The position numbers and the translations under genes are program-made. The notes beneath the pieces are model-generated. The model did no database searches. It was not told the origin of the DNA and saw only the letters and a list, made by a program, of their open reading frames with translations. From Anaerolineae bacterium (GTDB lineage: Bacteria > Chloroflexota > Anaerolineae > JAAYZQ01): a stretch of DNA of 64,000 nt. Shown here one piece after another: positions 1,188 to 34,172 of the stretch. Within the stretch, counting starts at the first letter, position 1. Each line of letters opens with the position of its first letter. The stretch lies in assembly GCA_041300865.1 (NCBI GenBank), contig JBFYTF010000036.1:34604-98603 (forward strand). Direction: 5' to 3'.

Positions 1188-2396
1188 TCAACGGGGCACC
1201 AGGGCAATGCACTCCGCGGGGCAGACATCGGGGCACAGGCCGCAGCCGTAGCACTTTTCCGTGTCCACCGTCGGATAGCCGTCCGCGTCCATGACGTAGG
1301 CCCGGTGCCCGCCGTCGTCGCACGAGATCACGCAGCGGCCGCACTTGGTGCAGCGGCCCTTGTCCACCAGGGCCACGGCGTGCTTCACCGGCCTCAGGGC
1401 CGAGTGCGGCACGATGTTGGGCAGCGCCCTGCCCACGAGCTCCGCGGGTGATCTCATACCCTTTGACTCCAGGTAATAGCTCAGTCCCTCCTTGAGGTCC
1501 GCCACAATATCGTAACCATACAGCATGACCGCCGTGCAGAACTGGACAAGCGTCGCACCCGCGGCCATGTACTCGGCGGCATCGTGCCACGTGGTTGCGC
1601 CGCCACTGGCTGCCACCTTCAGATCCTGCCCGGTGCCCAGTTCGGCCAGATTGCGCAGCTCAAAGGGTTTCAGGTGCGCGCCCACCATGCCGGCGAACGT
1701 CCCCTTGCTGTCGATGGTCGGCAGCGGCGCGAACGTGTCAAGGTCGATGCCGATCAGCCCGTGGCGGGAGTCGCAGGCACACAGGGCCATGGCCCCTGCT
1801 TCCTTGACGGCCCTGGCGATGCTGACGATGTGGGTGACGTCGCCTGTCAGTTTCGGGACCACGGGAAAGCCGTCCGCCGCTTCGACGATCCAGCTCACGA
1901 TCCGGTGGGCTTCTTCCGGGATCTGGCCGATCATGAAGTGCAGCCCTTCGACCGGCGAGTCTGTCGGGCACGACATGGACACCTCCAGGTAGTCGGCCCC
2001 CACGTCAATGGACCGGCGCGTCAGGGTCTGCCACGACTCTTTGGTGGTGCCCCAGATGCTGGTGGCCACAATCTTTTCCGGGAACTCGGCCTTGAGGAGC
2101 CGGATGGCCCGCTCCATCTCGTCCATGTGGAACTCGGATATGTTGTCGATGTTGCCCAGGCCCATGAGCTGCCCCGCGGACCGCGTGCCGGCGATGCACG
2201 GGTAGGCAATGTCCACGACATAGTCCTCCATGGACGTCGTCTTGAGCACGGCGCCGGCCCAGCCGGCCCGAAACGCATCGCGCACCATCTCGTACGTGTC
2301 TGAAGGCGGCGCCGAGGCCAGGATGAACGGATTCTCGAACCGCAAACCGCAATATTCGACCGACAGATCAACGTCCGGAACCTGATAAATCGCCAT
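1188..2396 (-). CDS. preA: NAD-dependent dihydropyrimidine dehydrogenase subunit PreA-like (DHOD-type TIM barrel plus 2x[4Fe-4S] ferredoxin domain)
   Basis: N-terminus is MAIYQVPDVDLSVEYCGLRFENPF. C-terminal motifs are CTKCGRCVISC and CYGCGLCPDVCP. AGGAGG lies upstream of the ATG at 2396 (the ORF track starts at 2423). Confidence 0.85.
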   Translation of the reverse strand: MAIYQVPDVDLSVEYCGLRFENPFILASAPPSDTYEMVRDAFRAGWAGAVLKTTSMEDYVVDIAYPCIAGTRSAGQLMGLGNIDNISEFHMDEMERAIRLLKAEFPEKIVATSIWGTTKESWQTLTRRSIDVGADYLEVSMSCPTDSPVEGLHFMIGQIPEEAHRIVSWIVEAADGFPVVPKLTGDVTHIVSIARAVKEAGAMALCACDSRHGLIGIDLDTFAPLPTIDSKGTFAGMVGAHLKPFELRNLAELGTGQDLKVAASGGATTWHDAAEYMAAGATLVQFCTAVMLYGYDIVADLKEGLSYYLESKGMRSPAELVGRALPNIVPHSALRPVKHAVALVDKGRCTKCGRCVISCDDGGHRAYVMDADGYPTVDTEKCYGCGLCPDVCPAECIALVPR

Positions 2397-2413
2397 GTTT
2401 CCTCCTTGCCCTG

Positions 2414-3775
2414 CTACCCGCACAAGTATTTGTGTATCGCCAGGGCTACCTGCTTTCCCTCAGCGATGGATTGCACCGCGGTGCGCTGCTTCTGCCCGGC
2501 CAGGATGTCGCCCGCGGCATAGATGCCCGGCTCCGACGTCCTGCCTGTCTCGGGATCGACCAGGACGCAGCCATTGCGGGCCGTCTCCAGGCCCGCCACA
2601 CAGCGCAAGAATCCCTCGTCCGGCCGCTGGCCGATGGCGATGACGACCGTGTCGGCCGGCATGACCAGCGTGGACCCGGGCACGTCGACGACGTTGCCCC
2701 GCTCCCACGAGCCCGGCACCTTCCACGCGACGCGCACGCCCTCCAGGGCCACGACGTGCCCGTCCTTGCCCAGGATGCGGCTCGGCCGCACCCGCGAGTT
2801 GATCTGCACCCCCTCTTCGAGCGCCTGCCGCTTGTCGTTCTCGAAGGCATCCATCTCGGCGGGTGTTCGCCGGCTGGTGACGTTGACCGTTTCGGCCCCC
2901 AGCCGCAGCGCGCAGCAGGCCGAGTTCAGCGCCGCGCTGCCGCCGCCGACGACGATCACGTTCTTGCCCACTTTTACTTTGCTGGCGGTGTCGAGCCCCC
3001 GGGCAGCGCGCAGGATGTCCAGCGCCGTGTAGACCCCGGCCAGGTCCTCGCCCTCGATGCCCAGCGAGTATGAAGCCTGCAGGCCCACGGTCAGAAGCAC
3101 GGCGCCAAAGCCCTGCTCCAGAAGGTCAGCCGGGATGAGGCTCTCGTTGACCGGCGTGCCGAGCCTGAGCTCGACGCCCAGATCGCGCACGAGCTGCACT
3201 TCGTATTCAACCACCTCGCGCGGCAGCTTGAACGGCGGGATGACGCTGATGAGAGCACCGCCGGCCTGCTCCTCCTGCTCCAGGACCGTAACCGCGTGGC
3301 CCAACTCCCTGAGCTTGACCGCCGCAGCCAGCCCTGCCGGGCCTGCGCCGACAACCGCCACCGGCGGCGCCGTGATGGGCTGCACGGCCAGGGGCCGGGC
3401 GCCGGCTACCATCTCCCAGTCTGTAAGAAAGCGCTGCAGCGCGCCAATGCGGATCGGATCGGTCAGAGCCTGGCTGCGACAGCGCTCCTCGCACAGGAAC
3501 TCGGTCGGGCACACCCGGCCGCACACGCCGGCCAGGATGTTCTCCTCTCGCAGCAGCCGGACCCCGCCGCGGTAATCGCCAAAGCGGATGCGCCGGATAA
3601 AGCCCCGGACGTCGATGCCGGCCGGACAGCCCTTGGTGCACGGCGCTTCGGCGCACATCAGGCACCGGTTCGCCTCGAAGGCGGCCTGAGTCCGGTCATA
3701 GCCTCGATAGACCTCATCGAAACCCTTCACTCGCTCGGACACGTCTACCAGAGTGGCTTTCATCGCTACGCTCAT
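2414..3775 (-). CDS. preT: Dihydropyrimidine dehydrogenase subunit PreT-like (glutamate-synthase small-subunit family, Fe-S/FAD/NAD)
   Basis: Cys clusters CLMCAEAPCTKGCP and CGRVCP. Two Rossmann motifs, VAVVGAGPAGLAAA and VIVVGGGSAALNSA. The start could be 3775 or 3832. Confidence 0.8.
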   Translation of the reverse strand: MSVAMKATLVDVSERVKGFDEVYRGYDRTQAAFEANRCLMCAEAPCTKGCPAGIDVRGFIRRIRFGDYRGGVRLLREENILAGVCGRVCPTEFLCEERCRSQALTDPIRIGALQRFLTDWEMVAGARPLAVQPITAPPVAVVGAGPAGLAAAVKLRELGHAVTVLEQEEQAGGALISVIPPFKLPREVVEYEVQLVRDLGVELRLGTPVNESLIPADLLEQGFGAVLLTVGLQASYSLGIEGEDLAGVYTALDILRAARGLDTASKVKVGKNVIVVGGGSAALNSACCALRLGAETVNVTSRRTPAEMDAFENDKRQALEEGVQINSRVRPSRILGKDGHVVALEGVRVAWKVPGSWERGNVVDVPGSTLVMPADTVVIAIGQRPDEGFLRCVAGLETARNGCVLVDPETGRTSEPGIYAAGDILAGQKQRTAVQSIAEGKQVALAIHKYLCG

Positions 3776-3798
3776 TGCCCTATGCTCCCTTTCTGTCG

Positions 3799-5025
3799 TC
3801 AGTCTCCGTTCGGACTCGCCGGTTCCTGCCACTTCCCCCAGCCGGCCGCGCCCAGGTCGGGGCTGCCGCCGGCAACCACCTCGCGACCTCGCACGAGGGT
3901 GGAAACGATTCTGCCCTTCAGCCGCAGGCCGGCGTACGCGGTCAAGTCGCTGCGCCCGTGGCGCGGCAGGCCGGCAACCTCCTCGTGGTCCGGGTCAAGC
4001 AGGACCAGGTCGGCGTCGCTGCCCACCTGGACCGCTCCCTTGCGCGGGTACAGGCCCAGCACGCGCGCCGGGCCGGAGCTCAGCAGCCGGCACAGGTCCG
4101 CCCAGGAGATTCTGCCCGGCTCCACGCCGTAGGCCACCACCAGGCGCAGCATCGTCTCCAGGCCCGGAAAACCGGGCAGCCCGTGCTCGTCCTTTTCCTG
4201 GCGCGTGTAGGAACAGTGATCGGTGCCGATGGTCTGGATCCGGCCCGCTCTGATCTCGGGCCAGAGGTCGGCCGCTTCGATGGGCGGGTTCACGTTGCAG
4301 CCCGGCCGGCCCCTGGTCAGCTCCCAGAGAAGATACTGGGGGCAGGTCTCCAGCGTCACGCGCCCGGCGCCCAGCCCGGACACCACCTGGCTAAAACGCT
4401 GGTGGGGCACGTGCAAGATGTGCACCTGCCCGGAACCCTGCGTGCAGGCGTGGGCCGCGATGGCGGCGTAATCATCCATCTTTTCCACGTGCACGAGCAC
4501 CTGGTGCCCGCGGGCCATCGCCCGCTTGACCAGGTCCAGGCCGTCGCCCGCCCGGGCACCCAGTCCGGAGGCGGCCATAAAGACCTTGACCGTCCTGGTC
4601 GTGGCTGCCGCCAGCTGCTCGGTGGAGCGCACCACGGTGTGCACCACGAAATCGCACAGCGACTGCTGCTCCAGGGCCGCGACCTTTTCCTCGAGCTCGA
4701 CCTCGAAGCGGGTGCCCGCCGGATAGGCAAAATCGCCCAGGGTGGTGACCCCGCCCGCCACGGCGGCGGCCGACTCGCCCTCGAACAGGCCGGCCGTGCC
4801 CAGCGAGGAGCGCAGGTGGGTGTGCAGGTCGATCGCTCCCGGCAGCACGATGGCATTCCCGGCCTCCAATATGCGCCTGGCTGCCAGCGGCAGATGGTCG
4901 GCCAGGGCCGCGATCCTGCCCGCCTCGACGGCCACGTCCATGGGCAAGAGCGCCCCATCAGGCACCACAACCCGGCCGCCCTTGATCAGCAGATCTACCA
5001 CAGGGTTCATCTCCGCGGCGGTCAC
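3799..5025 (-). CDS. Cyclic amidohydrolase (dihydropyrimidinase / hydantoinase / dihydroorotase family)
   Basis: Motifs DLHTHLRS (HxH), ETCPQYL and GTDHCSY. The GTG start overlaps the upstream stop (GTGA); an alternative ATG lies at 5010. Confidence 0.8.
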   Translation of the reverse strand: MTAAEMNPVVDLLIKGGRVVVPDGALLPMDVAVEAGRIAALADHLPLAARRILEAGNAIVLPGAIDLHTHLRSSLGTAGLFEGESAAAVAGGVTTLGDFAYPAGTRFEVELEEKVAALEQQSLCDFVVHTVVRSTEQLAAATTRTVKVFMAASGLGARAGDGLDLVKRAMARGHQVLVHVEKMDDYAAIAAHACTQGSGQVHILHVPHQRFSQVVSGLGAGRVTLETCPQYLLWELTRGRPGCNVNPPIEAADLWPEIRAGRIQTIGTDHCSYTRQEKDEHGLPGFPGLETMLRLVVAYGVEPGRISWADLCRLLSSGPARVLGLYPRKGAVQVGSDADLVLLDPDHEEVAGLPRHGRSDLTAYAGLRLKGRIVSTLVRGREVVAGGSPDLGAAGWGKWQEPASPNGD

Positions 5026-17181: not shown

Positions 17182-18408
17182 CTACTGTTGCTTGTCGAGT
17201 GCCTTCAGGGCCTGTCCAAAGATGTCGAGCGCCTGCACTACCTGCTCGCGGCTGATCACCAGCGGCGGTGAGACGCGCACGGTCGTGCCCGAGTTGACGG
17301 TCCAGCACACGACGGCGCCCAGCTCGTTCACCTTGCCGACGAACGTTGGCGTGTCCTCTTCGCGCTGCATCTCCATGGCCGTCAGAAGGCCGCGGCCCCG
17401 CGCCTCTTTCACCAGGTGCGGGTACTGGTCGCGCAGCGCATTCATCCCGGCCAACAGCTCGGCACCCCGGTCGCGGGCGTTTTGCAGCAGGTTTTCCTCT
17501 TCGATGACCTTGATGGTAGCCACCGCGGCGGCACAGCAGACGGGGTTGCCGCCGAAGGTGGTGCAGTGCACCAGGGGTGGATCGGAGAACTCGCACATCA
17601 GATCCCGCGAGGCAACCACGCCTCCCAGGGGCATGCCCGAAGCGATGCCTTTGGCCACGGGCATGATGTCCGGGACGACGCCATAGTACTCCGAGGCGAA
17701 CCACTGGCCGGTGCGCCCAAACCCGGTCTGGATCTCGTCAACGATGAGGAGCGCGCCGAACTCGTGGGCGAGGTCGCGAAGGGCCGGCAAGAAGTCGTCG
17801 GTGCAGGCGCGGATGCCGCCCTCGCCCTGGATGGGCTCGACCAGGATGGCCGCGACGTCGTCGTCCATCGCGGCGCGGGTGGCGTCGATGTCGTTGAAGG
17901 GCACCTCTACCGCCCAGGGATAGAGGGGCTCGAAGGGATCTTTGTACAGGCGCTTGGAGCTCACCGACAGGGTCATGTAGGTCCGGCCGTGAAACGCCCG
18001 CTGGAAAAAGACGAGCTTTTTCCGGCGCGTGGCCTTCATCGCCAGCTTGATGGAGCCTTCCGCGGCCTCGGCGCCGCTGTTGGTAAAGAAGGTGCTCTCC
18101 AGGTTGCCGGGTGCCCGCTCGGCGATGAGCTGCGCCAGTTCCGCCTGGATGGGATAGATAAAGTTGCCAAAGGCGTTGCCGTGGATGATCTGGCTCGCCT
18201 GTTGGCAGATGGCCTCCACGACCTTGGGGTGCGAATGGCCCGTCGCCGTGACGGCGATGCCGCCGATGAGGTCCAGGTACTCCCTGCCCTCGCCCGTCTT
18301 GAGGATGGCGCCTCTGCCTTCGACGGCCAGAATGCTCTTGGCGGTGGGAAAGAGCTGCGCGACGTACTTGCTGTCAATCTCACGTATCTTTTGCAGATCT
18401 TGAGGCAT
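17182..18408 (-). CDS. Class-III PLP aminotransferase (acetylornithine / GABA / beta-alanine type)
   Basis: Motifs LIVDEIQTGFGRTGQWFA and MPVAKGIASGMPLGG. Confidence 0.85.
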   Translation of the reverse strand: MPQDLQKIREIDSKYVAQLFPTAKSILAVEGRGAILKTGEGREYLDLIGGIAVTATGHSHPKVVEAICQQASQIIHGNAFGNFIYPIQAELAQLIAERAPGNLESTFFTNSGAEAAEGSIKLAMKATRRKKLVFFQRAFHGRTYMTLSVSSKRLYKDPFEPLYPWAVEVPFNDIDATRAAMDDDVAAILVEPIQGEGGIRACTDDFLPALRDLAHEFGALLIVDEIQTGFGRTGQWFASEYYGVVPDIMPVAKGIASGMPLGGVVASRDLMCEFSDPPLVHCTTFGGNPVCCAAAVATIKVIEEENLLQNARDRGAELLAGMNALRDQYPHLVKEARGRGLLTAMEMQREEDTPTFVGKVNELGAVVCWTVNSGTTVRVSPPLVISREQVVQALDIFGQALKALDKQQ

Positions 18409-18473: not shown

Positions 18474-21400
18474 CTACTGTTTCTTCTGCAACAGCCCGAG
18501 GAGCACTTTGTCTCTCGTCGCCGGCAGCGAAGTGATGCGCACGCCAATGGCGTTGTCGATAGCATTGATCACCGCGGGGGCGGTGGGCATGTAGGCTCCC
18601 TCGCCCACCCCCTTGGCCCCGAATGGGCCGCGGGGATGGGGATCCTGAACGATGATGGCCGTCACCTCCGCCGGGTTGGTGCTGCGCGGGATGGCAAGCT
18701 TGTGCAGGCTGTCGGTGAGGATCCGGCCGTCGACTTGCAGGAATTCCTCGCCGAGGGCATAGCCCAAGCCCATGACCACGCCGCCCTCGATCTGTCCTTC
18801 GACCGACGTCGGGCGGATAGGCGCCCCCGTGTCGTGGGCGGCAATGACCTTCAGCACGTCCACCTGGCCCGTTTTCTCGTCCACTTCGACGACCGCCACC
18901 TGGCAGCCATAGCAGAAGGCGGGATAGTTGGCATAGTCGTCGTCGCTGAGGCCCTTTTCCTGGCGCTGCTGAAGCGACAAGATGCGATAGGTAGGCGCGG
19001 GCACGTAGTGGTGGGCCACCTGGACCTGTTCACCGCGTTCGCGCGCCGCAGCTGCCAGGTCCGCCAGGTCTCCCAGCCGCTCCTCCCGCTCCAGGTCGAT
19101 CAGCTCTCCGTCCGCGGTGAGCTTGATGCGGGCAGCATCGGCGTTGTACACCTGGGCCGCGTACTGGAGCAGCTGGGCGTGGAACATGGTGCTCACCTCA
19201 AACGTGGCCTGGCCCGTAATGTGGGTCTGGCGCGACGCCGCGGTGATACCGCCATCCCTTCCTTCGCGCGTATCGCCGGTCACAAAATGCACCCGGTCGT
19301 AGTGGATGCCCATCACCCGGGCCGCGATCTCGCACATGGCCGAGTTGGATCCCTGGCCCAGGTCTATGGCTCCGTGGCGCAGCATGAGGCTGCCGTCCTC
19401 TTGCAGCTCCAGGGAGACGTGGACGCTGTCGTCGTTGCCGATGCCCAGGCCCACGTTCTTCATGCCGGCCGCCACGCCGATGCCCAGGCGTTTGCCGGGT
19501 TTCTGCTCGGGCAGCCGCCAGCGCCGGAGCTCTGCCTCTGCCGCTTCCAGCACCAGCTTGGCACCGACGCTTTGCTTCAGGGTCTGTCCCGTAACGAGCG
19601 TCGAGCCCTCCTGGTACATGTTCATGCGCCGCACGTCAAAGGGATCCAAGCCCAGCACCTGGGCGAGGCGGTCGACCTGCGACTCCATGGCGAACGTGAT
19701 CTGCTGCGCGCCAAAGCCACGCATCGCCCCGCAGGGCACGTTGTTGGTCCGCACCGAGACGCCGGTCACCCGGACGTTGGGGATCTCGTAGGGACCTGAG
19801 GAAAAGACCGTGGCCTGCTCGAGCACGTCGTCGGAGGTGGACCGGTAGGCACCACCATCGGCCACTAGCTGGGCCTGCAGGGCAACGATCTTGCCCTGGC
19901 GCGTCGCGCCGAGCTTGTAGTGCATCCAGAAGGGGTGCCGCTTGACGTGCATGCGGATCGATTCCGTCCGGTCCAGGACCAGTTTCACAGGCCGGCCCGT
20001 CAGGTAGGTGCCCAGGGCCAGGAACGGCTGGACCGTCAGGTCCATCTTGCCGCCAAAGGCGCCGCCCACGGGCGTCTGGACCATGCGCACCCTTTCTATT
20101 GGCAGGCCAAGGATATCGGCCAGCTGCATCCGGTCGCCCGGCGGCCATTGGGTCGCTTGATAGACGGTGACACAGTCGCCGTCCATGACGCCGATGCCGC
20201 CCTCGGTCTCGAGGAATGCGTGCTCGATGGCTTGCGTGCGATAGTCATCCTCGATGACGATCTCGGCCTGGGCAAAGCCGGCCTCGACGTCGCCCTTTTC
20301 CACCAGGGTGCGGTGAAACACGTTGTTTTCGCCCTTGAGCACCGGCGCCCCGGGCTCCAGGGACCGCTGCGGGGTGAACAGGCCAGGCAGGGGATGATAA
20401 TCTACCTTGACCCGGGCGGCCGCCGCTGCCGCCGCCTCTTCCGTCTCGGCGTACACCGCAGCCACCGGCTCGCCGACGAACAGCACCCTGTTTTCGGCCA
20501 GGACGGGCTGGTCGTAGCCCATGGAGCCAAAGATGTTCTGGCCGGGAACGTCCTTGTGGGTGATGACCTTGACCACGCCCGGCACGGCCTCGGCCGCGGT
20601 GGTGTCGATGCCCAGGATCTGGGCATGGGGGTGCTCGCTCCACACGATCTTGCCGTAGAGCATGCCCTCCAGCTGCATGTCGCCGGCGTACACCTCGCGC
20701 CCCGTCACCTGAGCAAGGGCGTCCTTGCGCGGCAGGGCTCGCCGGGTCAGCTCTTTTTTGTCGCCGCGCATCACGGCCGCGGCGTCCTGGATGGCCTCGA
20801 TGATTTTGACATAACCCGTACAGCGGCAGTAGTTGTTGCCCAACCCTTCCTTGATCTCTTGCTCGGTCGGGTCGGGGATATCGCGCAGCAGGGTAAGGGC
20901 GGCGAGGACCATGCCCGGGGTGCAATAGCCGCATTGGACGGCATCGTGGACCATGAACGCCTGCTGCACGGGGTGCAGGTTGTCCGGGTTTGCCACACCC
21001 TCGATGGTCAACACCTCGCGACCGTGGGCCTTGGCAGCGGGAAAGAGGCAGGAGACCACCGGCTGGCCATCGACCAGGACGGTGCAGGCGCCGCACTCTC
21101 CCTCGTCGCAGCCGATCTTGGTGCCGGTGAGGCCCAGGTCTTCGCGGAGGAGATGTCCCAGCGTGGCACTCGCCCCTCCTTCGACCGTGCGGATCTCACC
21201 GTTGAGACGGAACGTGATGGTGCCGCCCGCGGCGGGCTCGCTTGCCGCGCCCGACCAGGCCCGGTCCCAGGCAAAACGGCCGGCGATGGTCTGCTGCTCG
21301 CCCGACCTGGCAGCCTGGACGGCGCGCTGGATGGCACGCTGGATGAGGACCTGCAGCACCACCTCGCGGTACTCGGCGGTGGCACGCAGCGCACTGGTGC

Positions 21401-22172
21401 GCACCGTGCACACCAGGGCCGCTTCGTCGGCGGCGATGGCATAGTTCTCGTCGGTGCACGCTTCGCCTGCCAGCCAGTCCTCGGCGCACGTAGCGCGGAA
21501 GGGAGTGTCGGCCACGGGTCCCAGCGAAATGCGGATCCAGGCCAAGTGGTCGAGGTCCTCCGTCAGCTCCAGGTCCACCGCGCAGCAGGCAATGGGCAGC
21601 GACATGACCTCCCGCTTGGCCAACCGCTCGTAGGCCGAGGCCTGCCGGGGCTTGCGCCTGCGCCAGCGAAAGCGGGTGATCATCTCCCGGCTGGCATCGA
21701 GGTGCGAGCGCCCAGGCCCGGCAAAGAGGCTCGAAACGGGCAGCCACTGCCGGCCACCTTTGCCCGCCACCTCGGCCTCGGCGTCCAGCGCCAGGAGGGC
21801 GATGCTGCCGTCACCCGCCGGCTGGGCGGTCACGACGTTTCCGGCCAACGTGCCGACGTTCTGGACTGACCAGGCACCGACGTGGTGCGCCGCCTCGGCC
21901 AGGACGTACGCCTCGCAATTGACCAGGGGCGAGGTCCACAGCTGGTGATACGTGGCGTTCGCCCCCACGACGACATAGTCCCCCTCGTAGCCGATGGCAT
22001 CGATGCCGGGGATGCGCGTCGTGTCGACCAGGCACTGGGGCGCGAACTTGCCCTGTCGCACATCGAGAACCAGGTCGGTGCCGCCGGCAATGAGCCGCGC
22101 CTTGCCCTGCCACTGCTCCAACGCCGACAGCGCGTCGTCTACGGAAGTGGCCAGGTAATATTTCTCCCACAT
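18474..22172 (-). CDS. Single-polypeptide xanthine-dehydrogenase-family molybdoenzyme (FAD, 2Fe-2S and Moco domains fused)
   Basis: 1232 aa. A CoxM-like FAD domain (about aa 1-288; [12 protein letters not shown]) is followed by a 2Fe-2S domain (about aa 318-468; [24 protein letters not shown]), then a Moco domain from about aa 480. Confidence 0.85.
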
Positions 22173-22192
22173 GCTGCCTCGTGCCTCCTAAT

Positions 22193-23488
22193 CTAGTGCT
22201 GGCGCCCGTTTCGCGCGCCTTGCCACAGCCGGGCAATGGTCGCCATTGCCTGCTCTCGTAGCTCCTCTTCGTCTGCGGTCTGGACCTGGCCATCGGCCAC
22301 CACCACCCGGCCATCGACGATCACGTGGCTCACGTCGCCTCCCGCCGCGCCCACCACCAAGTGATAGACGGCGTTTTCGGGCAGCAGCGGCGACGGTGCC
22401 GAGTTGCGCAGCAGGACCATGTCGGCCAGGGCGCCGGGCCTCAAGGCGCCGGCATCGAGGTGGAGCGCGCGCGCCGCCCGCGTGGTGTGCAGGCTCAGGA
22501 CGTCCTCTGCCGAGACCTCGCCGGGAGTCTGCAGCGAGTGCAGCAGCAACGTCGTGCTGAGGTTGACAAAGGGGTCAAAGGCCCGCACAAAACCATCGTC
22601 ACCCAGGCTGGCATTGACCCCGGCTTTGAGCATCTTGCTCAACGGAGCGGCTCCGGTGCCAATCTCCATGTTCGACACCGGGTTGTGGGACACCTGCGTG
22701 CCCGTCTCGGCCAGCACGCCGATCTCCTCGTCGTCGAGGTGAACGCACTGCGATGCGATCGTATCCTGGTCGAGAACTCCGAGCTCGTGCAGGTAGTGCA
22801 CCGGTCGCTTGCCAAATCGCTGCAGCGTATCCTGCACGTGGTAGGTGCCCTCGGAGACGTGGAGCTGGAAGAGGGCGTTGTGACGGCAGGCGATCTCTTT
22901 TGCCTGGCGAATGTAGGGACCACTGCACGAGAACGTGGTGTGCACGCTCATCACGCCGCGCACGCGCCCCCGCAGCGACAAGATCCGCTCGTTTTCCTCG
23001 AGCAGTTTCTGGGCGATCTCTTCTCCTGCACGTTGGGTGGCCTCGTTGGAGACAAAGGCCCGGGCGCCGGTTTTCGCTACGGCTTCCGCCTCGGCGAGCA
23101 TGAAGCCCGGTGCCGCGTAAGGGGACTCCATGACGTCGCAAAAGCAGGTAAAGCCGCTCTTGAGGTGCAGCAGCGAGGCATAAGCGGCGAGGCTGGCCAC
23201 GTCCTCGGCGCTAAGCATGTCTTCGACAAAGGGCCACCAGTACTCTTTCAGGAAGGGCCAGAACCCCGCCGGTGCCGGTACCGGGTGGCCGTAGGCCACC
23301 AGGCCGTGCAAATGGGTGTGGGTGCTGATCAGCCCCGGCATCAAGATGCCGTCGACGTACAGATCGGTCTCCTGGTCTCTCGCGCCGGCCAGGACACTAA
23401 CGATCTTGTCGCCCTCGATCTCGACCACAGGATCGCGGATCACGCCCTGTTCGGTCATCGTCACCGCCAGCCGCGCACCAACCTTCAT
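22193..23488 (-). CDS. Metal-dependent amidohydrolase (SsnA / chlorohydrolase / aminohydrolase family)
   Basis: Motifs LISTHTHLHG and QLHVSEG. AGGAGG lies 6 nt before the ATG at 23488. Confidence 0.8.
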   Translation of the reverse strand: MKVGARLAVTMTEQGVIRDPVVEIEGDKIVSVLAGARDQETDLYVDGILMPGLISTHTHLHGLVAYGHPVPAPAGFWPFLKEYWWPFVEDMLSAEDVASLAAYASLLHLKSGFTCFCDVMESPYAAPGFMLAEAEAVAKTGARAFVSNEATQRAGEEIAQKLLEENERILSLRGRVRGVMSVHTTFSCSGPYIRQAKEIACRHNALFQLHVSEGTYHVQDTLQRFGKRPVHYLHELGVLDQDTIASQCVHLDDEEIGVLAETGTQVSHNPVSNMEIGTGAAPLSKMLKAGVNASLGDDGFVRAFDPFVNLSTTLLLHSLQTPGEVSAEDVLSLHTTRAARALHLDAGALRPGALADMVLLRNSAPSPLLPENAVYHLVVGAAGGDVSHVIVDGRVVVADGQVQTADEEELREQAMATIARLWQGARNGRQH

Positions 23489-23525
23489 AGTTTCCCTCCT
23501 TTCTCTCCCTGTGCCCGCTCTCGGC

Positions 23526-25235
23526 TCACGCCGGCTGGAACAGGCGAGCCAGGTCCAGCTGGGCGAGTTTTTCTGAGCAGGGACGGCCCTGCTCATCCCA
23601 GCCCCGGATGCGGTAATAGGCGGCCATCCCCTCGCGGTAGACGTCCGGCTTGAGCATGCCGTCCATGATGCGACGGGGCAGGGTGTCGTGCGAGGCGTCG
23701 ACGCCGCGCTTGACGTTGAGCAGGCGCTCCAGGTTGTAGATCCGCTCGCCGGCTACATCAAGCTCCTCGTCACTGAACTCGGTGCCCAGGACGGCGCTCA
23801 GCGCGGAGGCGTAGAACGGGCGCAGCGTTCCGGCGAGGAACGTGCAGACGATGAGCGAGTCGCGGACGCAGCCGGCATCGTGGTAGTTCGCGACCATTTG
23901 GGCCAACTCTACCCCGGAGAACTCGGTCCCCGACAGCTCGTCGGCGACCGTCCAGGCCCGGCTGTGACAGCCGCCGCGGTTGGCCGTGCTGTAGGAGATG
24001 GCCATGCCCGTGAGCTTGCGCGGGTCGTAGGCGGCCAGCTCCAGCCCCTTCACCTGCATGGCGTAATCCACTCCCAGGCTGCGGGCCGCAGCCCGAGTGC
24101 CCTGGCCCAGGAGGTCGCCCTCAGCCTGCCGGTAGCCGATCTTGTGCACCAGGTCCAGGATGTTGGAAGGATCGTCCAGGGTGCCGGTGTATTCCCGGTA
24201 GAAGGCCACCGCGTTGCCGGTAGAGATGGTGTCGACACCCAGATCGTTGCAGAGGTTGTTCGCCCGGGCGATGAGGGCATAGTCGTCGACGCGGTTGTCA
24301 CCGCCAAAGGCCCACACCGTTTCGTATTCGGCCGCTTCCAGCTCCAGGCCATCGACCCGGACGTGGAGACGACAGCGGACGGGACAGGAGGGGCAGGTCG
24401 TGCGCTTGTAGACAAACTCCTCGACGATGCGCTCGCCGTAGAGGTTCGCAGCCCCGGCGAAATAGCGCTCCCGGTGATTCCCCGTGGGGAAGGCGTGGAA
24501 CTCGTTGACGGGCGCCACCAGGTTCGGGGTGCTGATGGGGCCTTGCACCTCCATCAAGAAGCTCGACTCGCGGATGGCGCGCAGTGCATCACGGCTGACG
24601 ACCTTCAGGCGGTCCGGATCGGCGACAGGGATCTCGCTGTTGCCTCGCGCGACGATGGCCTTGACGTTCTTGCTGCCCAGGATGGCGCCCATCCCGCACC
24701 GGCCGGCTGAATGGCTCTCGTCGCCGCGCACGTTGGCCATGGCCACCAGCCTCTCGCCGGCCGGGCCGATGACCACTGCTCGCAGGTTGCCCTTTTCCTC
24801 CCGCTCAAGGATGGTCCGTGCCTGGGAGACCGTCAGGCCCCACAGGTCAGGACGCGGAAGGACCTCGACCTTGTTCTCGTCGATATAGACAACCGAGGGC
24901 TGCGGGGCCTGTCCTTGGAGCACGAGAGCGAGGGTATCGGTGCGGGCCAGGGCCGGGCCAAAGTCACCGCCAAGCCAGCTGCCGGCGCACAGCCCCGTGA
25001 GGGGAGATACGCCAAAGAAGCACGCGCGGTTGGCTCCGGGGAAGCCGGTGGCGGTGAGGCCGCCGGTGGCGATGATCAGCGGCAGATCCGGGTCCAGGGC
25101 CGGCAGGGCCAGGTCGGCGCCGGCCATGAGGCGTGCTCCCAGGCCGAGGCCGCCCAGGTACTGCCCTTGCATGGTTGGATCCACGGCTTGGCTCTGAGGC
25201 GACCCAGAACAGAGATCCAGACAGCGAATGTGCAT
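23526..25235 (-). CDS. Aldehyde:ferredoxin oxidoreductase (AOR) family tungsto/molybdopterin enzyme
   Basis: AOR N-domain (LGGLGLGARLM, IIATGGLTATGFPGANR) and a CPSCPVRC cluster motif. AGGGGGA lies before the ATG at 25235. Confidence 0.8.
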   Translation of the reverse strand: MHIRCLDLCSGSPQSQAVDPTMQGQYLGGLGLGARLMAGADLALPALDPDLPLIIATGGLTATGFPGANRACFFGVSPLTGLCAGSWLGGDFGPALARTDTLALVLQGQAPQPSVVYIDENKVEVLPRPDLWGLTVSQARTILEREEKGNLRAVVIGPAGERLVAMANVRGDESHSAGRCGMGAILGSKNVKAIVARGNSEIPVADPDRLKVVSRDALRAIRESSFLMEVQGPISTPNLVAPVNEFHAFPTGNHRERYFAGAANLYGERIVEEFVYKRTTCPSCPVRCRLHVRVDGLELEAAEYETVWAFGGDNRVDDYALIARANNLCNDLGVDTISTGNAVAFYREYTGTLDDPSNILDLVHKIGYRQAEGDLLGQGTRAAARSLGVDYAMQVKGLELAAYDPRKLTGMAISYSTANRGGCHSRAWTVADELSGTEFSGVELAQMVANYHDAGCVRDSLIVCTFLAGTLRPFYASALSAVLGTEFSDEELDVAGERIYNLERLLNVKRGVDASHDTLPRRIMDGMLKPDVYREGMAAYYRIRGWDEQGRPCSEKLAQLDLARLFQPA

Positions 25236-25376
25236 AACCGTTCCCCCTTGATCTACGCTACTCATCTTCGAGCTTGAGCACGGACTGGGAAAGACGCTTG
25301 CGGGCCGGGAACAGACCTATGGGCCAAAGAGCGTTGCACGCATGGCTGACAAGCCGGCACCGGGCAGACATTGTAT

Positions 25377-30396: not shown

Positions 30397-32616
30397 TTAC
30401 TGGCCCCGCATTTCCCGCCATACCCGTTCCGGCGTGGCTGGCAGGTTCGGGATACGGACGCCTACTGCGTCGTAGATGGCATTGAGAACAGCCGGGGCAG
30501 TGGTCACGAGAGTGATCTCACCCAATCCTTTAGCCCCAAAGGGCCCGGTTGGATCAGGCACCTCAACAATGCGGCTGTCCAGCTCCAGGGGCATGTCGCG
30601 AACAGTCGGAACATAGTACTCACTCAGCCGGCCTGTGCGAACCTGGCCGTCCTCCTGGATGAACTCCTCCATGAGGGCATATCCAACTCCCATGTGAACG
30701 CCGCCGGCAACCTGTCCAAAGGTGGTTTGCGGGTTGAAGACATGTCCGGCATCCGTGGCTGCCCACACCTTCAGGATCTGCACCTCACCTGTCTCGCTAT
30801 CCACTTCCAGGAGAACGACCTGCGTACCGAAGGAGTAGCTATAATAGGGGTTACACTGGCCCGTCTCGGGATCGAAACTTGTTGTAGGCCGCTCTCTGAG
30901 GGGATGATGCGTGTAGGTGGCAGTGATAACGTCTTGCCCAGTTTCTTGGCGTAGAACGTCCTCCCACTGTTGTTGTGCTTGGGCACAGGCCCGAAGAAGA
31001 GCATTGCCGGCGATGTAGGTCAGACGAGAGGCTGATGCCGAACCCCCGTCGGGAACGTGGGCGGTGTCGACCACGCTGATCTGTACCTGATCCAGTTGCA
31101 GGTGCAAGGCCCCGGCGGCGATTTGCTGCAGGATCGTGTGTACGCCCTGGCCCATCTCCACTGCGCCCACACTGACTTGTGCCTTGAAGATGTGACCCGA
31201 CTCGTCAAGGCGCAGTTCGACATCCACCGTGCACTTGTCGTCGAACCCAAAGGGAAACCCTACGTTCTTTTGCGCACTGGCAACGCCGATACCGCGCCGC
31301 CGGTTCGGGGCTGAGGGCGTTCCAATGTCCGGGCGGACCCAACGGTCGCCGTCTCGCGGTGACCACCCGGCGGCGAGAGCAGCCTCCCGCAAGGTCTGTT
31401 TTATCCCCGTTCCGGCCGGCATCGGATGCCCCAACACGGTCTCGCTGCCGGCTTCGACCATGTTCTTCAGGCGGAACTCGACGACATCCATGCCCAACGC
31501 TTCAGCCAGCCGATCCATGTGCTGCTCGCAGGCAACGGGTGCTTGGGCCGTGCCGAACCCGCGCATCGCCATCGCCACCGCGTTGTTTGTGTGGACGGTA
31601 TAGGCGTCGATCTTGACGTTTGGCGTGACATAGGGGCCGGCCAACGCACAGACAGCACAGCCCAGCACCAAGCCGCTGGTGGACGCATACGCTCCCGCAT
31701 CAGAAATCGCCTCAATGTCCATGGCAAGGAGCCGGCCATCGCGCGCGGCACCGACCTTATAGCGGAAGAAGAAGCGATGGCGCTTACCTGTGCAGCGCAT
31801 CGTCTCTTCTCGCGAGAAGGTCATCTTTACCGGCATCCGCAGAACGTAGGCGCAGAGGGCCAGGAGGTGCTGGATATACATGTCCTCGCGTCCACCGAAT
31901 GCCCCACCAATGGCGGGAACGATCTCGCGCAACTGATCCTTGTCGAGATGGAGCATGTGCGAGATTTGACCCAGATCGTCGTGAGGCCACTGAGCAGCAG
32001 CGATCACCGCGATCCGACCTTCGTTGTCAACATACCCTATCCCGGCCTCTGGCTGAAGATATCCGTGCTCGATTGCTTGTGTGCTGTACGTACTCTCGAT
32101 GACCACGTCGCACTCGGCAAACGCCGCTTCGACGTTGCCCTTCCGCACCGGAATGTGAGCAAAGACATTCGTGCCCATTGCTTCGTGCACCAAGGGAGCG
32201 CCTGGCTGCATTGCGTCTCGTGGGTCAGTGAGAACTGGGAGCACTTCATAGTCCACCCGGACCAAGTCCGCGGCTTGACGGGCAATTCGTTCTGTTGTGG
32301 CGACGACAATTGCGATGCGATCCCCGAGCCACCGTACCTTGTCGCCTTCGGCGATGAGGACGGGTTGATCCTTCACAAATATCCCGTAGACGTTGACGGG
32401 AACGTCACAGTAGGTGATGACTCGGGCTACGCCAGGCACAGATTCCGCGGCGCTGGTATCGATCTTGAGGACCTTTGCATGGGGATGCCTGCTCCACACG
32501 ACCGCTCCATACAGCTGGCCGGGCATGTTATGGTCTTGGGGATACTTGTTCGCTCCTTGAACTTTGCCACGGGCGTCAACGCGTTCAACCGATTTACCGA
32601 GGACAGAGCTGCTCAT
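30397..32616 (-). CDS. Xanthine-dehydrogenase-family molybdopterin-binding large subunit (CoxL-like)
   Basis: MSSSVLGKSVERVDARGKVQGANKY at the N-terminus; GFGTAQ and GGGFGGRED-like motifs. AAAGGAGG lies before the ATG at 32616. Confidence 0.85.
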   Translation of the reverse strand: MSSSVLGKSVERVDARGKVQGANKYPQDHNMPGQLYGAVVWSRHPHAKVLKIDTSAAESVPGVARVITYCDVPVNVYGIFVKDQPVLIAEGDKVRWLGDRIAIVVATTERIARQAADLVRVDYEVLPVLTDPRDAMQPGAPLVHEAMGTNVFAHIPVRKGNVEAAFAECDVVIESTYSTQAIEHGYLQPEAGIGYVDNEGRIAVIAAAQWPHDDLGQISHMLHLDKDQLREIVPAIGGAFGGREDMYIQHLLALCAYVLRMPVKMTFSREETMRCTGKRHRFFFRYKVGAARDGRLLAMDIEAISDAGAYASTSGLVLGCAVCALAGPYVTPNVKIDAYTVHTNNAVAMAMRGFGTAQAPVACEQHMDRLAEALGMDVVEFRLKNMVEAGSETVLGHPMPAGTGIKQTLREAALAAGWSPRDGDRWVRPDIGTPSAPNRRRGIGVASAQKNVGFPFGFDDKCTVDVELRLDESGHIFKAQVSVGAVEMGQGVHTILQQIAAGALHLQLDQVQISVVDTAHVPDGGSASASRLTYIAGNALLRACAQAQQQWEDVLRQETGQDVITATYTHHPLRERPTTSFDPETGQCNPYYSYSFGTQVVLLEVDSETGEVQILKVWAATDAGHVFNPQTTFGQVAGGVHMGVGYALMEEFIQEDGQVRTGRLSEYYVPTVRDMPLELDSRIVEVPDPTGPFGAKGLGEITLVTTAPAVLNAIYDAVGVRIPNLPATPERVWREMRGQ

Positions 32617-32664
32617 GCGGCCTCCTTTGCCCTGACTTCTCAAGACGACAACGTTCCGGGTGCC

Positions 32665-33144
32665 TTAGGACCCCGCATGGTCTGCCAACTCGGTCGCCGC
32701 AGCCTTCACCGCATCGATGATCTGATAGTATCCGGTGCACCGGCAGAGATTGCCGGACAACCCGTCCATGATCTCCTGATGGCTTGGCCTTGGCTTTTCT
32801 GCTAACAGCGCCACCGTTGACATTACGAAGCCGGGCGTGCAGTAGCCACACTGAATTGCAGAGTGCTCCACAAAGGCTTTTTGCACAGGATGAAGCTGCC
32901 CTTCCGGAGCAAGCCCTTCAACGGTGCTAACCGAACGCCCGTGGGCCTTGAGTGCGGGATAGATACAACTCAGGACGGGTTCGCCATCTACCAACACAGT
33001 ACAGGCTCCGCACTCGCCCTCCTCGCATCCAACCTTGGTGCCTGTTAGGCCAAGCCTATCACGCAAGACCTGAGCCAGCATCTCTCCCGGATCGATCTCG
33101 ACGGCTGCAACCCTGTTGTTGATATTCATCTCGAGAAGGGTCAT
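32665..33144 (-). CDS. (2Fe-2S)-binding small subunit (CoxS-like)
   Basis: Motifs [18 protein letters not shown] and CRCTGY. Confidence 0.9.
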   Translation of the reverse strand: MTLLEMNINNRVAAVEIDPGEMLAQVLRDRLGLTGTKVGCEEGECGACTVLVDGEPVLSCIYPALKAHGRSVSTVEGLAPEGQLHPVQKAFVEHSAIQCGYCTPGFVMSTVALLAEKPRPSHQEIMDGLSGNLCRCTGYYQIIDAVKAAATELADHAGS

Positions 33145-33260
33145 GGCTTACTCCTCCGTCGTTCTTGTCCGCGGCCACTGCGCGGAGCAACTAACCTTCA
33201 GTCAGACATCGAGATGGCTGAGACCATATCGCAATCCGATGGCTTCCGTAATACCGGATC

Positions 33261-34172
33261 TCAGGCGCTGGGTGTCGCATCGGCCAGGGCTTGGCTCAAG
33301 GCACGGCGCACCAAGACTTCGACCATCTGCTTGCGATAATCGGCAGACCCGCGCAAGAGACTGTCTCGAGGTGCGGCGGTTTCAAATGCCTTCTTCGCAG
33401 CTGCAGCGATAACCTGCTCGCTTACCGGAGCATTCAGCAGCACATCCTCGGCCTCGCGGGCCCGAAATGGAACCGGCGCCACAGGCCCAACCGAGATCCT
33501 GGCGTCCGCGAAATGACTATCCTCGACCCTCACGACAACGGCGACGCATACGCTGGGCAGGATCAGGGCCTGACGGCGCGCCAGCCGCTGGAAGGACCAG
33601 CTCGTGGACCCTGGCAGAGGCCGGAAGCGGAGGGCCGTTACTATTTCCTGGCAAGGATCCACGGTACACTTACCGACACCGGTGTAAAAGCTACTGATTG
33701 GCACCCATCGCCGGCCACACCGGTCTAGTATCTCTACATCTGCGTCAAGGGCAAAAAGCGCTACGGCTCCATCGGCAGCGGGCAGAGCGTTTACTACGTT
33801 GCCGACTAGGGTAGCCACGCGTCGAATTTGAGGACCGCCAATGGCCGCACACGCGCGGGCTAATATGCCCGCCTTGGCCTGAATGAGAGAGGAAGCCGCC
33901 ACTTGGGCATGTGTTACCTGTGGACCTATCAGGATCCAGCCGTCTTGTTCTTCAAGGAAGCCCAAACCTGGAACACGTGTGATGTCGACCATCACCTGGC
34001 TGTCGCACTGGCCGCGCTGAGCCTGGAGCACAAGATCCGTGCCGCCAGCGATGATGCGAGCTCGGCCATTATGGTGCTGTAACATTTCCAGGGTTTCGCT
34101 CAGGGTTGCGGGGAAGAGGTACTCGGTCCAGAATGCAGGTTTCCGGTTCTCATTCTCTATCACAGGACTCAT
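33261..34172 (-). CDS. FAD-binding medium subunit of a molybdopterin dehydrogenase (CoxM-like)
   Basis: Motifs [11 protein letters not shown] and VGNVVNALPAADG. Confidence 0.85.
   Translation of the reverse strand: MSPVIENENRKPAFWTEYLFPATLSETLEMLQHHNGRARIIAGGTDLVLQAQRGQCDSQVMVDITRVPGLGFLEEQDGWILIGPQVTHAQVAASSLIQAKAGILARACAAIGGPQIRRVATLVGNVVNALPAADGAVALFALDADVEILDRCGRRWVPISSFYTGVGKCTVDPCQEIVTALRFRPLPGSTSWSFQRLARRQALILPSVCVAVVVRVEDSHFADARISVGPVAPVPFRAREAEDVLLNAPVSEQVIAAAAKKAFETAAPRDSLLRGSADYRKQMVEVLVRRALSQALADATPSA

Follow-up and report, generated by a model that had tools for sequence, protein, structure and literature searches.

A Probable Single-Chain Molybdenum Hydroxylase with FAD–FeS–Moco Domain Order Encoded in an Anaerolineae Gene Cluster

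Introduction

Enzymes of the xanthine oxidase (molybdenum hydroxylase) family are built from FAD, iron–sulfur (FeS) and molybdenum-cofactor (Moco) modules or subunits, referred to here as M, S and L, respectively. The subject of this work is a gene that encodes all three in a single polypeptide. It lies on the minus strand at positions 18474–22172 of a 64,000-nucleotide stretch, hereafter the window, taken from an Anaerolineae metagenome-assembled genome (MAG; GenBank GCA_041300865.1, contig JBFYTF010000036.1, positions 34,604 to 98,603). The closest described systems distribute the three modules in various ways. Eukaryotic XOR and AOX (bovine XDH, 1FO4; human AOX1, 4UHW) hold them in one chain in the order FeS–FAD–Moco. 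The flavin-less aldehyde oxidoreductases MOP and MOD of Desulfovibrio gigas and D. desulfuricans (1SIJ/1VLB and 1DGJ) have FeS fused directly to Moco via a short connector. In the CoxMSL-type enzymes (CO dehydrogenase, quinoline 2-oxidoreductase, 4-hydroxybenzoyl-CoA reductase) the modules are separate polypeptides, encoded in M-S-L order in many operons, and the selenium-dependent nicotinate dehydrogenase of Eubacterium barkeri (3HRD) comprises four subunits (NdhF, NdhS, NdhL, NdhM), with the Moco subunit split in two (NdhL and NdhM). The 2,8-dioxopurine dehydrogenase (DOPDH) XdhAC of Clostridium sporogenes and Escherichia coli XdhD, finally, are selenium-dependent systems of flavin-less chains or with a separate FAD subunit; in E. 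coli the FAD protein YgfM is encoded next to XdhD. The gene for XdhAC, an S-L molybdenum enzyme, is clustered with those for an SsnA-type amidohydrolase, an NAD(P)H ring reductase and a carbamoyltransferase. DOPDH, which is of this S-L type, reduces urate, its physiological electron donor being unidentified (bioRxiv 10.1101/2025.04.24.650524).

Within the literature searched, we found no description of a bacterial FAD–FeS–Moco single chain. The Anaerolineae protein shares with eukaryotic XOR and AOX the assembly of three modules in one chain and differs from them in module order (FAD–FeS–Moco versus FeS–FAD–Moco), at about 20% sequence identity; given the different domain orders, the eukaryotic and the fused bacterial chains are independent fusions. 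MOP and MOD, the best full-length matches in sequence and fold (E 3e-127), lack the N-terminal FAD module (~290 aa) and the linker that follows it. As we detail below, the M-S-L layout is rare, recurrent and uncharacterised, an unusual build of a well-known enzyme family and not a new kind of enzyme, and the known chemistry of the family is unchanged by the finding. A FAD–FeS–Moco hydroxylase encoded by one gene would be an attractive scaffold for expression, for structural work and for the biocatalytic hydroxylation of N-heterocycles.

Results and Discussion

Domain Architecture, Cofactor Sites and Predicted Structure

The gene at 18474–22172 (−) is one uninterrupted open reading frame (ORF) of 1232 codons plus stop, the translation of which contains no internal stops and matches a database cluster at 100%. 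Seven Pfam domains follow one another along the chain: FAD_binding_5 (aa 4–168), CO_deh_flav_C (183–283), Fer2 (322–370), Fer2_2 (389–462), Ald_Xan_dh_C (490–596), MoCoBD_1 (616–852) and MoCoBD_2 (879–1164). A preliminary description of this DNA, made from its letters, had claimed all three subunits in one 1232-aa chain in the order FAD–FeS–Moco, and the stop-free translation and the sequence of domains bear this out. The CoxM/XdhB-like FAD module (PF00941, PF03450) comprises aa 1–290 (21303–22172, −) and is joined by a linker of 27 aa (aa 291–317; 21222–21302, −) to two [2Fe-2S] domains (PF00111, PF01799; aa 318–470; 20763–21221, −), after which the Moco module, assigned by Pfam and by alignments and composed of an α/β hammerhead, MoCoBD_1 and MoCoBD_2, occupies aa 471–1232 (18477–20762, −). 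The two junctions that the preliminary description had singled out for checking (about nt 21310–21220 and 20770–20700) correspond to aa 288–318 and 468–490. The start codon, ATG at 22172, is preceded at a distance of 11 nt by AGGAGG (22184–22189, −), a ribosome-binding site read from the sequence and graded strong, and the G+C content at third codon positions (0.86) is like that of the neighboring genes and typical of coding DNA here. The stop of the preceding amidohydrolase gene lies 20 nt away and the following aminotransferase gene 65 nt away, and from these short gaps the gene belongs to an operon.

The cofactor sites of all three modules are kept. The eight FeS ligands (C355, C360, C363, C375, C414, C417, C449 and C451) show no variation among 58 sequences, fused and S-L. 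In the FAD motifs AGGTDL (aa 29–34) and TLAGN (aa 108–112) most positions are invariant among 24 full-length fused homologues, and the remainder show at least 90% conservation or conservative substitutions. When aligned to rat XDH, 4-hydroxybenzoyl-CoA reductase and MOP, the protein has Q675, R818 and F820 at the Moco-site positions of bovine Gln767, Arg912 and Phe914, and E1191 at that of the catalytic Glu1261, so that these residues of the eukaryotic enzymes have equivalents here. Pfam scores amount to 113 bits for PF01315, 274 for PF02738, 215 for PF20256, 122 for PF00941 and 59 for PF03450. Judged by its Moco domains, the eight-Cys FeS signature, the catalytic and Moco-site residues and the FAD module, the protein is a member of the xanthine oxidase family.

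An AlphaFold2 model of aa 1–1200, built from 58 aligned sequences, has a mean pLDDT of 90.8 and a pTM of 0.91, values at which the three modules are confidently packed as one body; the M-S linker is modeled as coil with pLDDT of about 73–76. Superposition of its S-L part on D. gigas MOP (1sij) gives an rmsd of 2.8 Å and a TM-score, normalised to the target, of 0.88, and that of the whole model on mammalian XOR a TM-score, normalised to the query, of about 0.75. By this model, the usual arrangement of the family can plausibly be adopted by the single chain.

Conservation of the Fused Gene

A fused gene from a single metagenome invites the question of artefact, be it an assembly chimera, a sequencing error masking a stop codon between M and S-L genes or contamination of the MAG. 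The source genome, a MAG of 6.7 Mb in 722 contigs, is 90% complete with 7.7% contamination, and relatives exist in which in-frame M and S-L genes stand one stop codon apart; both points would fit such an error. A search of 5.8 billion proteins returned, however, about 25 metagenomic clusters of 1228–1266 aa with the same seven Pfam domains and 64–86% identity over 100% of the query, the members of which stem from JGI, ENA, Logan and NCBI assemblies. The alignment of the 24 full-length fused homologues has a mean column identity of 75%, and in every one of the 24, drawn from these four data sources, the frame is open across both junctions, with amino acid changes of the coding type. The linker carries a common, semi-conserved motif, AGRFxWxRxWS, while its remaining residues vary freely. 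Three GTDB species genomes (L001–L003, Anaerolineae or 'Chloroflexia' MAGs) contain the same single ORF, and the flanking synteny is the same in all three. Since some 25 independent clusters keep the chain together with a partly conserved linker, the gene is no assembly or frameshift artefact: on these sequence comparisons that explanation is close to refuted, and we give it next to no credence. The gene thus encodes a real, conserved and probably functional single-chain FAD–FeS–Moco molybdenum hydroxylase.

Rarity and Recurrence of the M-S-L Architecture

To place the architecture among known proteins, a HMMER pass with aa 1–1200 as the query was run over 1.84 billion representatives clustered at 50% identity. 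The best 150 of these include a single representative of the fused clade, P0020, and, from a second M-S-L lineage, the 903-aa fragment P0161 (38% identity), the others being S-L proteins (~920 aa), L alone or other fusions. A second search, in which only aa 1–480 were scored and long proteins were required, added P0271, P0272, P0274, P0278, P0280 and P0284 (31–38% identity), all six with M-S-L order confirmed by Pfam. With P0161, for which Pfam confirms this order too, this makes at least seven M-S-L clusters besides that of the window. The ten members of P0284 come from Burkholderiaceae/Burkholderiales MAGs; one of them, MCL4772819.1, is annotated just as 'molybdopterin-dependent oxidoreductase'. 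Among 401 sampled genomes of the class, just two have a stop-free match that spans the junctions within a frame of 1200 aa or more: that of the window and G190, which is the genome of L002 and belongs to the same family. The preliminary description had asked for a database search for the fused architecture, which might have proved common and already characterised. It is neither, nor is it unique, with at least four independent origins (see below).

Two sets of apparent fusions were rejected. The 1338-aa ORF of L053, from a Myxococcota MAG, has M and S in a different frame from L and represents an M-S fusion with a separate L, and open frames of 1259–1331 aa in relatives of the class are two genes split by stop codons. 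Single representatives of other layouts, some of which may be gene-calling artefacts, were also encountered: M-L without FeS (P0228, 1101 aa), L-M-S (P0279, 1273 aa), S-L with a GltD/PreT-like module (P0141, 1249 aa) and S-L with an amidohydrolase (P0209, 1169 aa). Anaerolineae very commonly have an M-S two-domain protein of ~470–500 aa, in most cases alongside a separate Moco subunit (loci L036, L037, L042, L045, L046, L050–L052, L057 and L061–L063, among others). Rhodobacter XdhA has the order FeS–FAD, the reverse of that in this Anaerolineae FAD–FeS protein.

Origin of the Fusion

In a tree of the L domain (67 rows, 755 columns, quick IQ-TREE, SH-aLRT support) the fused clade of the window, with 100% support, nests within a 100%-supported clade of 27 sequences, of which 19 are S-L, seven fused and one L, and addition of 14 further rows leaves this placement unchanged. 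The M-S-L label requires at least four changes on this tree, and the AU test rejects the hypothesis that all 13 M-S-L rows go back to one origin (p = 5e-48, log-likelihood difference 513). P0271 and P0272 fall among L subunits of Chloroflexota that have an M-S two-domain protein as partner, which means that the M-S-L layout was reached there by a different route, and the Burkholderiales M-S-L group is separate again. Turning to the FAD module, the M-domain tree assigns that of the fused protein to an Anaerolineae clade of 25 with 99% support, in which the M genes of orphan M+S pairs from genomes of the same family come closest to it (support 94; 50–52% identity), followed by the M genes of M+S-L operons together with the split M gene of the window. 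The orphan M+S pairs at L090:4217–5608, L091:2451–3806, L094:1651–3090 and L098:1274–2668 are 47–52% identical to the fused FAD module; they have no Moco gene within several kb and are followed by a class I/II aminotransferase gene or a HemN-like radical-SAM gene.

These trees bear on the reading of the preliminary description, which saw an operon-order gene fusion matching the split coxM-S-L-like set that is also present in the window. The fusion is genuine and does follow the common operon order M-S-L, unlike the eukaryotic FeS–FAD–Moco order. What did not hold is derivation from a coxMSL-like trio, as the Moco domain nests, with 100% support, in the S-L clade and outside that of the CoxMSL-type L subunits. 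The neighboring split set was considered as the source of the fused gene and rejected: its L clusters with the P0271/P0272/P0274 set in a well-supported clade apart from the fused L, and its M, which shares the 99%-supported clade with the fused M, is not sister to it.

From the trees, the likelier course is that S and L were fused first, this being an old and widespread fusion, and that an upstream FAD-subunit gene was captured thereafter. The catalytic half would then come from the flavin-less S-L lineage to which D. gigas MOP, XdhD and DOPDH-like proteins belong, and an Anaerolineae FAD-subunit gene directly upstream would have been joined to the S-L gene, most simply once the stop codon that kept the two in-frame genes apart was lost. 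In at least eight relatives from the class (L081–L088) the M gene and the S-L gene share a reading frame, with one to three stop codons between them, for example L082 (frames 721–1623 and 1624–4500) and L081 (513–1709 and 1710–4508). The spacing from M to S in these eight measures 30–52 codons, versus 43 in the fused protein. A pair of in-frame genes with one stop codon between them is a plausible candidate precursor, in which stop loss would give the fused architecture. The M-S-L layout arose independently in at least three further bacterial lineages. Bacteria have built single-chain enzymes of the xanthine oxidase family several times and in a non-eukaryotic order, a convergent fusion from operon to protein for which an in-frame intermediate is visible.

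Substrate Pocket and Relation to Characterised Enzymes

Where bovine XDH has its purine-binding residues the fused protein has others: E802 is replaced by Met710, R880 by Gln786, and F1009/T1010 by Leu909/Gly910, with E1261 kept as Glu1191. Within the clade Gln786 is invariant and Met710 at least 90% conserved. The first two of these positions hold Asn and Gln in P0038, the nearest S-L relative, and Glu and Arg in the more distant S-L proteins P0047 and P0032, which are near the TIGR03311 threshold. NCBIfam scores stay below the cut-offs of all xanthine dehydrogenase models: 651 versus 830 for TIGR03311 (selenium-dependent XDH), 584 versus 784 for pucD, 447 versus 780 for XdhA and 328 versus 850 for xdhB. 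The nearest S-L relatives score 717–830 with TIGR03311. The fused protein is also below the cut-off of TIGR03313 and, lacking the Glu/Arg pair, differs in this respect too from XdhAC and XdhD. With its purine-binding residues replaced, the fused enzyme is, as far as sequence motifs and scores can tell, not a classical xanthine dehydrogenase. That the top NCBIfam names are those of xanthine dehydrogenase models and that a Bmp purine-type transporter is encoded nearby would suit an ordinary xanthine dehydrogenase that is merely fused, yet with every equivalog score of that kind below cut-off, and Glu802, Arg880, Phe1009 and Thr1010 exchanged for Met, Gln, Leu and Gly throughout the clade, we consider this highly improbable.

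The absence of the purine-binding Glu and Arg would also suit a MOP-type aldehyde oxidoreductase that has gained a flavin and oxidises an aldehyde intermediate of the pathway instead of hydroxylating a ring. The best full-length relatives of solved structure are indeed the Desulfovibrio aldehyde oxidoreductases 1dgj and 1sij, and several homologues carry the label 'aldehyde oxidoreductase' in JGI. These names are automatic, however, and the protein has a FAD module, which MOP-type enzymes lack, and scores 608 with the MOP-type model NF045668 versus a cut-off of 1100. Moreover, the operon already provides a dedicated aldehyde enzyme of the aldehyde:ferredoxin oxidoreductase (AOR) family, and the Moco half on its own is closest to other enzymes: its N-terminal half to E. 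barkeri NdhL (E 7e-97), the closest solved relative of that part, and the whole Moco module next to 4-hydroxybenzoyl-CoA reductase. A MOP-type function is on this evidence unlikely. Nicotinate dehydrogenase and the fused protein have similar motifs at the position of bovine E802 (GGKLDLS versus GGKMDLT), and differ at that of R880 (Arg versus Gln786). Both combine FAD, FeS and Moco modules, and nicotinate dehydrogenase acts before a ring reductase and an amidohydrolase, as the cluster of the fused gene suggests for its product; the Moco module, divided over NdhL and NdhM in the former, is continuous in the latter.

Gene Context

The fused gene is part of a minus-strand array that runs from about 25.3 to 1.2 kb. 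It starts with an AOR-family gene (23526–25265; PF01314, PF02730), the first gene of the unit, followed by the upstream operon partner, an SsnA/chlorohydrolase-like amidohydrolase (22193–23596) that Pfam identifies and that scores below every NCBIfam equivalog cut-off; both are kept in synteny in L001–L003. After the M-S-L gene comes the downstream partner, a class-III aminotransferase (17182–18408; PF00202), 79–85% identical to its syntenic counterparts in the same three genomes. Next are a tandem isochorismatase-fold protein, a CN hydrolase, a PreA-like flavo-FeS protein, an MmgE/PrpD protein and an OTC-like carbamoyltransferase, and then LeuC- and LeuD-like proteins, PrpF, SucC-like and SucD-like proteins, an HMGL-like lyase, a further amidohydrolase, PreT and PreA. 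Upstream of the array lie two Bmp-type ABC importers, the split M/S/L set and a second, deaminase-like amidohydrolase. A core of about 12 genes keeps its order in L001–L003, namely Bmp transporter, AOR, amidohydrolase, M-S-L, aminotransferase, isochorismatase, CN hydrolase, PreA, PrpD and OTC. From the annotation of these genes, this conserved cluster of roughly 20 genes apparently breaks down an imported N-heterocycle of the pyrimidine, purine or pyridine-carboxylate type, with the PrpF, LeuC/LeuD, PrpD, HMGL and SucC/SucD proteins forming its lower pathway. Its logic (molybdenum enzyme, ring reductase, ring-opening amidohydrolase, decarbamoylation or carbamoyl transfer, transamination) resembles that of nicotinate fermentation, reductive pyrimidine breakdown and the pathway of 2,8-dioxopurine, and would point to a conserved and uncharacterised heterocycle-degradation cluster in the abundant, uncultured Chloroflexota.

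The closest S-L relatives, P0038 and P0036, are encoded in a similar cluster (amidohydrolase, PreT, PreA, S-L, second PreA-like protein, aminotransferase, CN hydrolase, AOR, OTC and Bmp), and the 6 kb covered on their flanks contain no M gene. The PreT/PreA pair might there serve as the redox partner that stands in for the absent FAD module. An amidohydrolase–PreT–PreA trio (1188–5025, −) closes the array in the window, and the same trio is found directly upstream of an S-L gene in L100 and L101.

Proposed Function and Catalytic Direction

Taking domain architecture, phylogeny and gene context together, we think it very probable that the gene encodes a complete xanthine-oxidase-family hydroxylase in one chain, composed of an S-L protein and a captured FAD gene and acting in N-heterocycle breakdown. 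Such an enzyme would hydroxylate or dehydroxylate an imported nitrogen heterocycle and couple, by way of the fused flavin, to a soluble two-electron carrier. The substrate would be hydroxylated with water at Moco, or the reverse reaction would take place there, and electrons would pass from Moco over FeS I and FeS II to the N-terminal FAD and on to the carrier, as in the three-subunit relatives, with all steps inside one polypeptide, which is probably homodimeric.

The reverse direction deserves separate consideration. The enzyme could act mainly as a reductive dehydroxylase, like DOPDH (XdhAC) or 4-hydroxybenzoyl-CoA reductase, with the FAD module feeding electrons from NAD(P)H or another donor to Moco at the entry of an anaerobic ring fermentation. 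Like DOPDH, the fused clade sits in the S-L lineage, and the clusters run parallel in having an SsnA-like amidohydrolase, PreT/PreA-type NAD(P)H ring reductases, a carbamoyltransferase and a Bmp purine-type importer. The genome has markers of an anaerobe in the tungsten-type AOR and in a SelD gene with an in-frame TGA. Direction, on the other hand, is not readable from sequence, the TIGR03311 score (651) falls short of the cut-off (830), the purine-type Glu/Arg of P0047 and P0032 are replaced by Met/Gln, and the selenium-maturation marker YqeB was not found in the 90%-complete MAG. We regard a mainly reductive role as a tentative possibility. A more far-reaching proposal, to which we assign a rather low probability, is that the fused enzyme performs the entry step of an undescribed anaerobic heterocycle fermentation of Anaerolineae, in which the FAD module would take on the redox role that PreT/PreA may have in the closest flavin-less S-L relatives; the change of carrier, for example to direct NAD(P)(H) coupling, would go along with a change of substrate marked by the Met710/Gln786 pocket, neither of which matches any characterised molybdenum hydroxylase.

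Several observations weigh against the reading of the gene as a captured-FAD hydroxylase of N-heterocycles. With regard to history, the S-domain tree favors the M+S-L operon group and the L-domain tree the S-L-only proteins, although the former, with just 152 columns, is too short to decide and only leans in its direction; the M-domain tree has support of just 94 and below near the node that bears on the donor of the FAD module; and recombination or a more complex history is, from these trees, possible. The search for precursors detects in-frame cases only, so the frequency of the in-frame state carries no weight. With regard to function, all NCBIfam equivalogs are below cut-off, and function is for this reason not transferable; activity, cofactor content, oligomeric state, electron acceptor and catalytic direction are inferred from sequence. 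Finally, the two families of the XdhC chaperone, PF02625 and PF13478, are both without a match in the whole MAG, as is YqeB. The preliminary description had noted that no XdhC-type chaperone is visible in the window; none was seen among the window ORFs scanned, and the statement now extends to the whole MAG at 90% completeness. At that completeness the lack of XdhC and YqeB is suggestive, no more, but it is notable in a MAG that contains nine Moco large-subunit domains. It also encodes SelD (G000:C262:8409–9341, 362 bits) with one in-frame TGA, probably a selenocysteine-containing form; on this reading the organism uses selenium, yet YqeB was not found. Selenium dependence may be a further point in which XdhAC, XdhD and nicotinate dehydrogenase differ from the fused enzyme.

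The Split Paralog Set

The second enzyme of the family in the window is encoded by separate M (33261–34172), S (32665–33144) and L (30397–32643) genes, identified by Pfam, that together span 30397–34172 (−) and stand in the M-S-L order of CoxMSL-type operons. Its modules are 38% (M), 56% (S) and 41% (L) identical to those of the fused protein. In its pocket it has Glu at the position of bovine E802, Cys at that of R880 and Phe at the third position. The expectation of the preliminary description that the two enzymes act on different substrates is upheld by this comparison of distant paralogs with differing pocket residues, from which the fused and the split enzyme almost certainly bind different substrates.

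The region of the window between 25400 and 36000, which includes the first Bmp importer, the split M/S/L set and the deaminase-like amidohydrolase, has a lower G+C content than its surroundings (0.57–0.60 versus ~0.65). In L002 a homologous amidohydrolase directly precedes the Bmp genes, without a split M/S/L set. As judged from composition and synteny, the split set may be a later insertion. Farther upstream, a 671-aa ORF (40370–42385, −) has two Bmp/PnrA-like matches; it may represent the substrate-binding protein of the second ABC importer in tandem-duplicated or fused form, or its upstream part may be untranslated.

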